Below, in pieces: positions 20,621-23,021 of a DNA stretch of 28,668 bases; the first letter of the stretch is position 1, and every line of letters starts with the position of its first letter. Position numbers and translations under genes: made by a program. The DNA lies in NCBI GenBank assembly GCA_964491675.1, contig CAZBHA010000001.1:2346-31013 (forward strand), written 5' to 3'. A model generated the notes under the pieces. That model did no database searches and was not told the DNA's origin. It was given only the letters and a program-made list of their open reading frames with translations. The DNA comes from an uncultured archaeon. GTDB taxonomy: Archaea > Iainarchaeota > Iainarchaeia > Iainarchaeales > JAAZKV01.

Positions 20621-20923
20621 TTAGTTTTCTTCAACTATTTCAGTAATTGATTTTTCTTTAACTACAGGGTTTGAATTTGGTAGTGCTGTTGTTTGAGTTA
20701 CTGTTGTAGTAGTTGATTTTATAACTTCTCCAGATTTTCTTTCATCTTCAACAATCTTTTTTATTGCTTCTTTCATTAAAACATCTTTATTAGATAATTT
20801 TTTCAAAGTATAAAAATATGCATTAATTATTTGATCAATATCAAGTTGTCTTTTAAATCCAAGTCTTGCAATTTCTTCAAAATATAATCTTACTATTCTA
20901 AATGCTACTTCTTCATCATTCAT
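20621..20923 (-). CDS. Hypothetical 100-aa protein, stand-alone paralog of the C-terminal domain of the upstream gene
   Basis: NDEEVAFRIVRLYFEEIARLGFKRQLDIDQIINAYFYTLKKL aligns ungapped to aa 252-293 of the 312-aa protein. RBS AGGTGA overlaps the upstream TAG. Confidence 0.85.
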   Translation of the reverse strand: MNDEEVAFRIVRLYFEEIARLGFKRQLDIDQIINAYFYTLKKLSNKDVLMKEAIKKIVEDERKSGEVIKSTTTTVTQTTALPNSNPVVKEKSITEIVEEN

Positions 20924-20931
20924 AATATCAC

Positions 20932-21870
20932 CTACTTTTTTAATCCTGCTTTTTTTACTTTATCATCTAATCCTATTGATTCATTTCTTTTAACTCTTGC
21001 TAACGAGTAAATATATGAATCAATTATTTCATCAAGAGTTAATTGTTTTTTTAACCCAAACCTTGCAATTTCAATGAAATAAGTTTGAATTAATTTAAAT
21101 GCTATTTCTTCATCATCAGCACTAACTGCTTTTTTAATATCAGTAACTGAAATTGATTTTGAAGAAACTTCATTTTTAGAAACTGTGCTTGTATTTACCG
21201 CAGTTAGAAGCATTGCTCTTATTCTATCATAATCTATTTCTTTTTCAACTGTTTTTGTAGTAGTAATTGGAACTTTTTTTGTTCTGTATTTTATTTTTGT
21301 AATAACTTTTGGCTTAGTTGAAACTTTTTTTACTTTAGTAATAACTTGTGGTTTTGATTTGATGTTTCTAGTTTTATATTTTATTTTTGTAATTGTTCTT
21401 GTTGTGCCTTTTTTTCCAAGTTTTCCTGATTTTGCTAATCTCCACAACGCAACTGATTCTTCAAAAGTTTTTCCTAGACGCATTTGAGAACCAATAAATT
21501 GATTATAAGCACTAGGTCTTCGAGTATTTTTTGATTCTAATTTTTTATATTTATTCCATTCTTTTACTGCTTTTTCAAAAGTTAGGCCAGAATTTATTTG
21601 CTTTCTTATAAATAAATTATATTCAGTAACTCTTCTAGTATTCTTTTTATCTTTGTTTTTTACTTTTAATTTTTGAATATCTTCTTTTAACTTAGCAATT
21701 TCTTTATCTTGAGAAATATTACTTTTTACTGCTTTTTGAGCTGTTTTTTTATTAGAATCTAGCTGTTTTTTTACTGATTTTGAAACAGTTTTTTTATCCA
21801 CGCTTTTTTTAATAATTTTTTTTGAATTTGCTTTTTTAACAGGGCTTTTTGATTTTACTTTTTTAACCAT
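20932..21870 (-). CDS. Very basic multidomain protein: Lys-rich N-terminus, two HMG-box/YABBY-like repeats, Thr/Lys-rich linker, uncharacterised helical C-terminal domain
   Basis: Repeats KNTRRVTEYNLFIRKQINSGLTFEKAVKEW and KNTRRPSAYNQFIGSQMRLGKTFEESVALW, 38 aa apart; GGTGA RBS. The function call is inference. Confidence 0.8.
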   Translation of the reverse strand: MVKKVKSKSPVKKANSKKIIKKSVDKKTVSKSVKKQLDSNKKTAQKAVKSNISQDKEIAKLKEDIQKLKVKNKDKKNTRRVTEYNLFIRKQINSGLTFEKAVKEWNKYKKLESKNTRRPSAYNQFIGSQMRLGKTFEESVALWRLAKSGKLGKKGTTRTITKIKYKTRNIKSKPQVITKVKKVSTKPKVITKIKYRTKKVPITTTKTVEKEIDYDRIRAMLLTAVNTSTVSKNEVSSKSISVTDIKKAVSADDEEIAFKLIQTYFIEIARFGLKKQLTLDEIIDSYIYSLARVKRNESIGLDDKVKKAGLKK

Positions 21871-21911
21871 AAAAAATTCACCTTTATATTACATATCCTG
21901 TATAAAAATTA

Positions 21912-21930
21912 TATTTAAATCTTTCCTTTT
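21912..21930 (-). promoter_or_regulatory. Putative BRE/TATA promoter of the 312-aa/100-aa gene pair
   Basis: Minus strand AAAAGGAAAGA-TTTAAATA, about 42 nt upstream of ATG 21870. Confidence 0.5.
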
Positions 21931-21953
21931 TAACTGAATTAAGTTAATTTGAA

Positions 21954-23021
21954 CTATTTTGGCTTTTTTGACAAAAGTCGAGTTATTCCACGCCCTTTTT
22001 TAACTTTTTTTGCAACAATAATATTTTTACTTTCAAGATCAGTTATTGCTTTTCTTAAAGTTCTTTCAGCAAAATCTTTTTTAAATTTTAAATAAATTTC
22101 GCCAGCAGTAACTTCTTTATCATCTAAAAAGTCAAAAATTAATTTTTCTTGTTCACTTAAATTATTTGAAATTTCTATTTTCACTGGTCTTTCAGTCATA
22201 AAAGATTTTCGCACATGTTCTACTTTAACCATTTTTGAATTTTCTTTTTCTGCAAGTCTTGCCGCATTAAGTAAAACACTTATTGCAATTCTTGCATCCC
22301 CTAATTTAGCAGCATGCGCTGCACTAAGTGCAATTACATCAGTGTCCAAAACATTTTGAAAAAAAGCAAAATTTGATCTTTCTTTTAAAATTTCTTTTAA
22401 TTCTTGTGAACCATATTTTTCAAAATTTAAAGTTGATGGATGAAGCGAACTTCGCACCCTATCATCTAAACTTGTTAAAAAATTAATATCATTTGAAATA
22501 AAAATCATCCCTAAAAATAAATTAAATTGTTCACCAATTCTTGAAAAATCATATAAGAGCTTTTTTGTATCTTCCTTTTTTAGTAATTGTTCTGCTTCAT
22601 CAAAAACAATAATTGGAATTACTTTTTTGCTTTTAATAACTGCAATAAATCTTTGAAAAATTTCTTCAATTGCCAGCCCCCTATTTGGAACAGGATATCC
22701 TAAAAAATTTGTTAGTTTAACTAATATTGAATTTTGAGAGTTATTTTCAAAACAATTAATATAAACAGTTTTTACACGATCAGAAAATTCACTTAATTCA
22801 GAAAGAACATATTTTGAACAAACAGTTTTTCCTGAACCTGGTACTCCACTTAAAAATAAATTAGAAGGTTTTTTTCCTTGAGTTGCTGGTTTAAGACAAA
22901 AAACCATTTCGCCAATTTCTTCATCCCTAAAAGGCAATTGTTCTGGAACAAAATCAGGATATAAATATCTTTCATCTTTTATAATTGTATTAATTTTTGA
23001 TCCTTGGAAAATATTTGCCAT
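21954..23021 (-). CDS. cdc6: Cdc6/Orc1 replication initiation protein
   Basis: YVP-like FVPEQLPFRDEEI, Walker A GVPGSGKT, YINC, VFDEAEQL, GDARIAI and a short winged-helix C-terminus. Confidence 0.93.
   Translation of the reverse strand: MANIFQGSKINTIIKDERYLYPDFVPEQLPFRDEEIGEMVFCLKPATQGKKPSNLFLSGVPGSGKTVCSKYVLSELSEFSDRVKTVYINCFENNSQNSILVKLTNFLGYPVPNRGLAIEEIFQRFIAVIKSKKVIPIIVFDEAEQLLKKEDTKKLLYDFSRIGEQFNLFLGMIFISNDINFLTSLDDRVRSSLHPSTLNFEKYGSQELKEILKERSNFAFFQNVLDTDVIALSAAHAAKLGDARIAISVLLNAARLAEKENSKMVKVEHVRKSFMTERPVKIEISNNLSEQEKLIFDFLDDKEVTAGEIYLKFKKDFAERTLRKAITDLESKNIIVAKKVKKGRGITRLLSKKPK

Follow-up and report, generated by a model that had tools for sequence, protein, structure and literature searches.

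Two genes conserved behind orc1/cdc6 in Iainarchaeota encode a candidate architectural DNA-binding protein and its paralogous partner

What is the role of two genes located directly behind the replication-initiator gene orc1/cdc6 in a small DPANN archaeon of the phylum Iainarchaeota, and does their position tie them to replication? DPANN archaea cannot be grown alone, and what is known of their chromosome biology comes almost wholly from genome sequences. To our knowledge, factors other than Orc1/Cdc6 that act at archaeal origins are hardly known, with UBP in Sulfolobales as a recent exception. In the window (the whole stretch of 28,668 nucleotides that was analysed, GC content 17-36%), the orc1/cdc6 gene (21954-23021, minus strand, 355 aa) is followed by a gene for a 312-aa protein (20932-21870, minus strand) and a gene for a 100-aa protein (20621-20923, minus strand), separated by 83 and 8 nt, respectively; coordinates, strand and gaps match exactly those of an earlier sequence-only reading of this DNA. 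Both genes of the pair are real: clustering of their homologs at 90% identity gives more than 110 clusters, and at 50% identity there are 128 representatives. Genes for PCNA and the RFC large subunit lie within the same 19 kb and aminoacyl-tRNA synthetase genes are also neighbours of the pair. The other conserved neighbour is a gene for an OLA1/YchF-type (Obg-like) GTPase, located on the opposite strand and in some genomes separated from the pair by mscL.

Judged by its profile matches, the product of 21954-23021 is a true Orc1/Cdc6. It passes the Orc1/Cdc6 model TIGR02928 with 261.9 bits (cut-off 181.3) over model positions 1-357 of 366, and profile search detected Cdc6_lid (E 1.5e-18) and AAA_22 (E 1.1e-12). 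A Walker A motif (GVPGSGKT) can be read in the translated sequence, and the protein is composed of AAA+, lid and divergent C-terminal winged helix domains. Elsewhere in the genome each relative encodes a second Orc1/Cdc6 paralog (~33% identity), which is never a neighbour of the pair.

The new point is that the linkage of the pair to cdc6 is conserved. Within the same family, 30 of 33 genomes carry the cdc6, large and small genes together on a single contig and in the same orientation; in the remaining three the genes are on separate contigs, in two of them at contig ends. Outside the family, approximately 54 genomes of 15 further families have a gene encoding the C-terminal domain of the large protein (CTD, see below) downstream of the orthologous cdc6, co-oriented with it and no more than 5 kb away, while in approximately 11 genomes cdc6 and the CTD gene are on different contigs, at least five of these at contig ends. 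Across the 16 families, whose cdc6 proteins share only 40-49% identity, the pair is always 3' of the orthologous cdc6 and on the same strand, in many of them at a distance of 50-150 nt, and in several families other genes were inserted or lost around the pair with the order retained. The sequence-only reading of a chromatin/replication module was to be refuted if homologs rarely lay near cdc6; this is clearly not the case, as the linkage holds by synteny throughout 16 families of the phylum. About two thirds of the genomes searched in the phylum contain the pair family. Of 201 genomes searched, 63 yielded no CTD, among them all 20 of one family for which complete genomes exist, thus the pair is dispensable for replication as such. 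Moreover, the block of RFC-large, OLA-type GTPase and cdc6 genes is kept even in genomes without the pair (L038, L040, L041, L043), and part of the linkage may therefore be inherited block synteny. We searched the literature for archaeal YABBY-like proteins, for DUF6434 and for cdc6-linked genes of Iainarchaeota and found no publication on any of them; a name, a Pfam family or a paper was not found for the pair family, which we regard as undescribed.

The sequence-only reading had called the two products a basic-protein pair, a description that fits the large protein and not the small one. The 312-aa protein is very basic (27% K+R, net charge +54, pI 10.3), while the 100-aa protein is not (net -1, pI 5.6). 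From its N-terminus, the large protein starts with a Lys-rich tail (residues 1-50; 21721-21870, minus strand; 38% K+R, net +17) that is predicted to be disordered (AF2 pLDDT <50), followed by a short predicted coiled coil (residues 51-75; 21646-21720, minus strand) with I58, L61, I65 and L68 at a/d positions. L61 is invariant and I58 and L68 are nearly so in the homolog alignment, AF2 models a helix over residues 31-73 (pLDDT 74-88), and this segment is probably an oligomerisation helix. Residues 76-156 (21403-21645, minus strand) form two tandem YABBY/HMG-box-like helix-loop-helix repeats (SEYNLFI...W and RRPSAYNQFI...W), in both of which Y, N, F, G, F and W are invariant among the homologs. 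AF2 predicts four helices here (pLDDT 88), with each unit being a two-helix hairpin of ~35 residues. Further downstream, residues 157-212 (21235-21402, minus strand; net +17) consist of basic repeats of the SKPK(V/I)ITKIKYRT type, which are underlain by the direct DNA repeats D13 and D20 and vary in copy number among homologs, with expansions and contractions in the alignment. By composition, the Lys-rich low-complexity tail and the S-K-P-K-type repeats resemble the linker-histone/SPKK tails of histone H1 and sperm H2B; unlike histone H1, the 312-aa protein has no globular winged-helix domain. Tails of the S-K-P-K type would suit minor-groove contacts in AT-rich DNA.

The hairpins resemble the YABBY domain (PF04690) of plant transcription factors in the motif R-x-P-S-A-Y-N-x-F-I, in a second helix with a conserved Trp and in the two-helix hairpin arrangement. 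They differ from it in a much shorter loop, two tandem copies, the archaeal host and the place behind cdc6; in addition, the N-terminal C2C2 zinc finger of plant YABBY proteins is absent from the 312-aa protein, the translation of which contains no cysteine. The likeness stays below threshold. YABBY was matched by 25 of 30 family members, with the best E-value of 4e-5 and all matches below the Pfam gathering cut-off of 28.6 bits for this domain of 69 positions. For the 312-aa protein the score was 12.8 bits as a whole and rose to 19.3 bits when residues 76-156 were taken separately (profile positions 10-37 of 69), also below the cut-off. A weak match to the YABBY model (12-17 bits) was present in the ortholog of the 312-aa protein in 22 of 24 family genomes and was the strongest of the genome in 20 of these. 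Genome-wide YABBY matches in the relatives cover 15-27 profile positions and never exceed the cut-off, and control genomes contain YABBY matches with similar E-values. Basic proteins with tandem small helical modules of the DNA-binding type are also known among HMG-box proteins (HMGB1, TFAM, Abf2; PF00505/PF09011), which share with the 312-aa protein the N-terminal P-x-S-A-Y motif and the Trp in helix 2. The HMG box is, however, a three-helix L of ~75 aa, whereas the predicted unit of the 312-aa protein is the two-helix hairpin described above. HMG_box_2 was matched weakly by 4 of 30 members (best E 0.029).

Structural comparison gave a similar picture. Among the clusters based on protein-language models and structure, the nearest named ones for the hairpins include HMG_box/YABBY sets, also HMG_box families of giant viruses, and one hairpin can be superposed on models of HMG_box/YABBY clusters (44 residues, rmsd 1.6-1.9, TM 0.43-0.48). 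A profile search against PDB sequences retrieved no HMG protein for the hairpin domain, and PDB structure searches gave no solved HMG box above background. Likewise, fold searches with residues 76-156 (PDB, AFDB clusters, VIA-wide) yielded nothing above background (Z ≤5.5, E ≥0.4), and searches with the whole protein (PDB Foldseek, AFDB Swiss-Prot, VIA-wide) were uninformative, being dominated by the long coiled-coil helix. When the hairpin alignment was used as a profile against 5.8 billion proteins of 40-158 aa, it retrieved two fragments of the same family only. Helical hairpins of HU/IHF and P5C-reductase that appeared in the fold searches share a common arrangement only and were discarded. 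We also set aside the reading of the two hairpins as (HhH)2, for which the evidence consists of two single-member Pfam matches and one weak RuvA row. On the short motif and the modelled two-helix hairpin, DNA binding or bending by the 312-aa protein may be proposed, with the likeness to YABBY and HMG-box proteins sub-threshold.

The large protein ends with a helical domain of ~50 aa (CTD; residues 248-312; 20935-21129, minus strand) with the motif EEIAF..YF.EIAR.G.K..L.LD.II..Y.Y, the columns of which are invariant in homolog alignments, and AF2 predicts two helices for it (pLDDT ~75). We consider the domain to be new: no recurrent Pfam family was detected among 34 members, no NCBIfam model matched, and the best PDB profile match (E 0.39) falls in a coiled coil. 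Residues 1-45 of the 100-aa protein are a paralog of the CTD, followed by a helical Thr-rich tail and a conserved C-terminal peptide, K.KSITEI.EE. The 100-aa protein aligns with this CTD at 43% identity (E 2e-15), and the two genes share 109 nt of DNA at 74% identity (repeat D1). Furthermore, the large and small proteins are naturally fused in 17 protein clusters, and the fusions carry two tandem CTDs. The proposal of a dedicated partner is supported by this paralogy of the shared domain and by the natural gene fusions. Prediction of a complex between the CTD of the 312-aa protein and the 100-aa protein scored 0.31 against a mark of 0.32. Autoinhibition by an acidic tail as in HMGB1 was dismissed, since the tail of the small protein has a charge close to zero here (net -1), and among homologs values from -13 to +10 occur.

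The pair appears to have its own promoter. By inspection, a TATA box TTTAAATA (21912-21919, minus strand) lies 49 nt upstream of the ATG of the 312-aa gene, preceded by a purine-rich BRE-like stretch, and a ribosome-binding site AAGGTGA is found 7-13 nt before the ATG. In most of 22 orthologous intergenic regions a TTTTTATA/TTTAAATA box precedes the start by 31-47 nt; a separate, conserved promoter of the pair is plausible. Just past the cdc6 stop and ~10 nt upstream of the BRE/TATA there is a dyad, TTAAC-N8-GTTAA (21930-21947, minus strand), a candidate operator. When 16 orthologous intergenic regions are aligned, the dyad falls within a conserved block; about 10 of these sequences retain four to five of its pairs, with one compensated variant, TTCAC...GTGAA. 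With 14 matches against 12.7 expected, the window shows no enrichment of the motif.

ORB and GC-skew checks found no replication origin near the cluster. The ORB core had three loose matches (1.2 expected), none of them in the cluster, and neither ORB elements nor repeat clusters were detected in or near it, the intergenic spacers measuring only 57-83 nt; repeat families were absent from the spacers of the window and from the longer spacers of relatives as well. Skew was examined in one complete relative, G039 (1.24 Mb, one contig). Its detrended extrema fall at ~283 kb and 955-965 kb, away from the position of the cluster (1,127 kb), although archaeal skew offers only weak guidance. Some 30 kb from this locus, CCAGTGG words are loosely clustered; most of them are inside the primase large-subunit gene, and they were rejected as an origin signal.

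Neither protein of the pair matches histone (PF00808) or Alba (PF01918) in Pfam. Genes for both are present in the genome, as separate genes on other contigs, so the pair is not its sole chromatin protein. The nucleoid protein UBP of Sulfolobales was shown to bind an essential origin motif and MCM (PMC12141716). The pair resembles it in concept only, as an archaeal nucleoid protein that would also act at origins and contact the replication machinery: the role of UBP is experimental while the pair is known from gene linkage, the phyla differ, and no relation in sequence or fold was detected.

Taken together, the two proteins most likely bind DNA as an architectural pair that is specific to the lineage and has a functional link to Orc1/Cdc6. 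The sequences show that orc1/cdc6 and the two genes form a conserved co-oriented unit of Iainarchaeota; that the pair binds DNA and is linked to replication or chromosome organisation, we hold with slightly better than even confidence. The large protein would most likely bind DNA with little sequence preference via its Lys-rich tail, the two YABBY/HMG-like hairpins and the SKPK-type repeats, and would probably oligomerise through the coiled coil, with its CTD probably pairing with the CTD paralog in the small protein; fused forms would carry both CTD copies in tandem in one chain. Because it is kept immediately downstream of the initiator gene across the phylum under its own conserved promoter, the pair most likely has a role tied to replication initiation or to the organisation of the nearby chromosome, e.g. 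in bending or opening origin DNA or in aiding Orc1 or MCM, and may act at an origin. A stricter version, in which the pair is a dedicated Orc1/Cdc6 accessory, with a mini-HMG/YABBY-type bender acting in a hetero-oligomer via the new dimerisation domain to remodel origin DNA or aid MCM loading, seems doubtful to us. If true, it would be a prokaryotic counterpart of eukaryotic HMG-type and ORC-accessory factors and the YABBY/HMG helix-loop-helix would have existed in archaea; should the hairpins be true relatives of YABBY and HMG boxes, the 'eukaryote-specific' history of the fold would need revision. With its presence in about two thirds of the genomes searched and its kept place behind the initiator in 16 families, the family offers a concrete candidate for an accessory factor of origins or chromatin, and one that can be cloned.

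Three other explanations have to be weighed against a coupling to Orc1/Cdc6. The pair might be a general nucleoid-associated (chromatin) pair with no special tie to initiation, its position reflecting inherited synteny of a housekeeping block or mere co-expression with replication genes. The conservation of the RFC-large/GTPase/cdc6 block where the pair is missing and the lack of origin signals near the cluster agree with this, as does the layout of a basic tail, SKPK-type repeats and HMG-like hairpins, which is that of a bulk architectural protein. Nevertheless, we consider it unlikely, albeit deserving serious weight, given the strictly kept 3' position on the cdc6 strand, the order retained despite insertions and losses, and the histone and Alba already encoded in the genomes.

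The pair might also be a sequence-specific transcription regulator that controls itself or cdc6, or is under Orc1 control, via the dyad in the spacer between cdc6 and the pair. Regulatory functions are reported for some archaeal Orc1 paralogs (PMC6061795), and the conserved dyad lies just upstream of the BRE/TATA of the pair. Plant YABBY proteins are transcription factors, which also fits. The charge of the large protein, its low-complexity basic tails and the variable copy number of its repeats would, however, be unusual for a specific regulator, and the dyad, a candidate operator, is only moderately kept and not enriched, which makes this explanation improbable. Slightly less probable still is an RNA- or ribosome-associated basic pair that does not bind DNA and is tied, for instance, to the genes for the Obg-like GTPase and for aminoacyl-tRNA synthetases nearby. 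Lys-rich helical-hairpin proteins are often rRNA binders, the GTPase gene is the other conserved neighbour, and the small protein has weak Nop52 matches. These matches were found in 2 of 34 members (E 0.003-0.06, far below the cut-off), though, the GTPase gene lies on the opposite strand and in some genomes beyond mscL, and the sole recurrent family signals of the large protein are those of the DNA-binding YABBY and HMG families.

Finally, inspection of the sequence between the convergent 100-aa and mscL genes revealed a hairpin, GGTGAAG...CTTCACC (20582-20601), with a 7-bp stem and a 6-nt loop, which is a putative terminator.

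The three genes of the cluster, orc1/cdc6 (21954-23021, 355 aa), the open reading frame of the large protein (20932-21870, 312 aa) and that of the small protein (20621-20923, 100 aa), lie co-oriented on the minus strand with gaps of 83 and 8 nt, exactly as read from the sequence alone. The first product matches Cdc6_lid (E 1.5e-18) and reaches 261.9 bits against TIGR02928 (cut-off 181.3 bits); judged by its sequence, it is a bona fide Orc1/Cdc6. Upstream of cdc6 lie pheT and pheS, and downstream of the large-small pair, in convergent orientation, mscL and an OLA1/YchF-type GTPase gene (18943-20145), followed by the gene of the RFC large subunit (17508-18833). 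PCNA is encoded at 4212-4955, 17 kb from the cluster; several replication genes (PCNA, RFC large subunit, cdc6) are grouped within 19 kb. No tRNA or Rfam RNA was found within the window.

The sequence-only reading had one genome from which to propose the linkage of the pair to cdc6, and this linkage proved to be conserved. Within the same genomes, the positions of the orthologous cdc6 and of the pair were each determined without reference to the other, and 45 loci were annotated. In 30 of 33 genomes of the same taxonomic family, all three genes share one contig and one strand, with the pair usually 50-150 nt from cdc6 and insertions of 0.4-1.5 kb in a few genomes; in the remaining three the genes are on separate contigs, in two of them at contig ends. 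Outside the family, a gene bearing the C-terminal domain (CTD) of the large protein follows cdc6 on the same strand within 5 kb in approximately 54 genomes of 15 further families, whose Cdc6 proteins are 40-49% identical to that of the window. Exceptions are approximately 11 genomes with cdc6 and the CTD gene on different contigs, at least five of them with genes at contig ends. The second Orc1/Cdc6 paralog (~33% identity) is never a neighbour of the pair. The RFC large subunit/GTPase/cdc6 arrangement is kept across the order also where the pair is missing (L038, L040, L041 and L043, four annotated loci), thus part of the linkage signal reflects conservation of a larger block. The conserved association with cdc6, together with the large-small partnership, is nevertheless well supported. 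Two relatives have a methyltransferase-like ORF that separates cdc6 from the large gene (L025:420-1406 and L034:5100-5927), and the one at L034 carries a SEYNLFF word resembling the large protein's hairpin motif.

At 90% identity the homologs of the large protein fall into over 110 clusters, and at 50% identity there are 128 representatives, the few named clusters being annotated as Diapherotrites, "ainarchaeum" or archaeon hypothetical proteins. Among 201 genomes drawn from the whole phylum, 138 gave a match to the CTD profile. One family, with complete genomes among its members, gave no match in 20 genomes; in one of the complete ones (G026), a ferredoxin-like gene comes after cdc6. Thus the pair is widespread but dispensable.

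Neither protein gave a significant Pfam or NCBIfam match, and the CTD matched no described family. The proposal of a pair of basic proteins holds for the large protein (pI 10.3, net charge +54 over the whole chain) and not for the small one (pI 5.6, net charge -1). The view that the small protein is a dedicated partner is, in turn, well supported: its residues 1-45 and the CTD are paralogous (43% identity, E 2e-15; 74% identity over 109 nt of DNA), the remainder being a tail, helical and Thr-rich, with a conserved C-terminal peptide. Furthermore, domain HMMs built from the alignment revealed tandem double CTDs in 17 protein clusters, which by their sequences are natural large-small fusions, a classical sign that the two proteins act together. 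The fusions also suggest direct packing between the two CTDs; in co-folding, the score of this pairing fell just short of the mark. The fused form occurs at loci L009 and L034, and some families, as at L032, keep the small CTD protein alone.

The layout of the large protein was derived from an alignment of 37 homologs, AF2 models and charge counts. A Lys-rich disordered tail (residues 1-50, net +17) is followed by a short coiled coil with conserved hydrophobic a/d positions (51-75), two tandem helix-loop-helix repeats with Y, N, F, G, F and W invariant in both (76-156, pLDDT 88), basic repeats of the SKPK(V/I)ITKIKYRT type whose copy number differs widely among homologs (157-212), a linker (213-247) and the two-helix CTD with a highly conserved motif (248-312). 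Some families lack the YABBY-like hairpins: directly behind cdc6 in genome G033 we observed a 251-aa protein (L037:4987-5742) that combines the CTD with a coiled coil and a tail rich in Arg and Lys; hence CTD and basic tail form the constant core and the hairpins are optional.

Several weak lines of evidence agree on a likeness of these hairpins to the HMG-box/YABBY class. Scanned singly, 25 of 30 homologs matched Pfam YABBY (best E 4e-5) and four matched HMG_box_2, none reaching the Pfam cut-off for either. A weak YABBY-model match (12-17 bit) lies inside the large gene in 22 of 24 same-family genomes, being the strongest of the genome in 20; genome-wide, the match is limited to the R-x-P-S-A-Y-N-x-F-I helix, and control genomes gave similar E-values. 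The nearest neighbours in the language-model search, DUF6434 (0.85), giant-virus HMG_box (0.80) and YABBY-bearing clusters (0.76-0.79), serve as leads only because all score below 0.9. In the ESM Atlas shape search one hairpin superposed on HMG_box/YABBY clusters (44 residues, rmsd 1.6-1.9, TM 0.43-0.48), and fold searches of PDB and AFDB with the large protein returned nothing over background. The module thus looks like the N-terminal strand and helices 1-2 of the HMG-box/YABBY class, and is assigned to neither YABBY nor HMG-box.

The BRE/TATA of its own that had been ascribed to the pair is present in the 83-nt spacer. Read from the sequence, the TATA box TTTAAATA lies on the minus strand 49 nt before the ATG; the spacer also contains a BRE-like, purine-rich stretch and the ribosome-binding site AAGGTGA. 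An alignment of orthologous spacers from 16 relatives reveals a common block of approximately 45 nt running from TTAAC through (T)TC(C/T)AGTTA to TTTTTATA. Within it, just upstream of the BRE/TATA, lies a TTAAC-N8-GTTAA dyad (21930-21947, minus strand), retained in approximately 10 of the 16 spacers; a single compensated variant reads TTCAC...GTGAA. Within the window the motif shows no enrichment. The pair therefore has its own conserved promoter, and the dyad may be an operator for a regulator.

Each of five genomes tested, the source genome included, encodes one histone-fold and one Alba protein. Thus the pair is not the sole chromatin protein, and a specialised or additional role fits it better than that of sole packager. 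We infer that the large protein could bend DNA and that the pair could act at the origin. In Sulfolobales the nucleoid protein UBP, the closest precedent in function, binds MCM as well as an essential origin motif (PMC12141716); the likeness is functional, with no homology detected. We found no paper on such a cdc6-linked YABBY/HMG-like protein. The large protein is a candidate architectural basic DNA-binding protein; the partner domain and the conserved association with an initiator gene are new.

The search for a nearby origin, which the earlier reading had considered, lent no support. The intergenic spacers measure 57-83 nt, and no repeat families or ORB-like words were present in the window or in the longer spacers of relatives. 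For the single-contig relative G039, fetched in full, the extrema of detrended GC, AT and purine skew fall at ~283 kb and 955-965 kb; the cdc6-pair cluster sits at 1,127 kb and its second cdc6 paralog at 840 kb. Because skew guides only weakly in archaea, these positions do not decide whether an origin lies next to the cluster. In the same genome, 30 kb from the cluster, a 300-nt spacer (L103:19071-19370; contig 1, 1159071-1159370) between PCNA-like and primase large-subunit-like genes, both named by reading translations rather than by family search, contains two copies of a ~68-nt unit that has a perfect hairpin of 8 bp (GTGCCATC...GATGGCAC), along with three TAACTGT(C/T)AAGG words. Its possible identities include an origin element and a small RNA.

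The window end (26200-28668) is very AT-rich (17-21% GC versus ~26% elsewhere) and holds several short ORFs (86-169 aa) on the plus strand. It showed no ORB-like repeats, and three ORFs scanned had no Pfam match, the first resembling a small membrane protein. Four minus-strand ORFs of 381 aa (3-1145), 591 aa (2324-4099), 273 aa (5604-6425) and 323 aa (6505-7476) likewise had no Pfam match at E 1e-5. Outside the window, on contig C8 of the source genome (G000), the second Orc1/Cdc6 paralog appears as two consecutive pieces in separate open frames (9302-9817 and 9861-10220), matching residues 12-181 and 180-297; a frameshift could be the cause, or the gene could be split or wrongly assembled.
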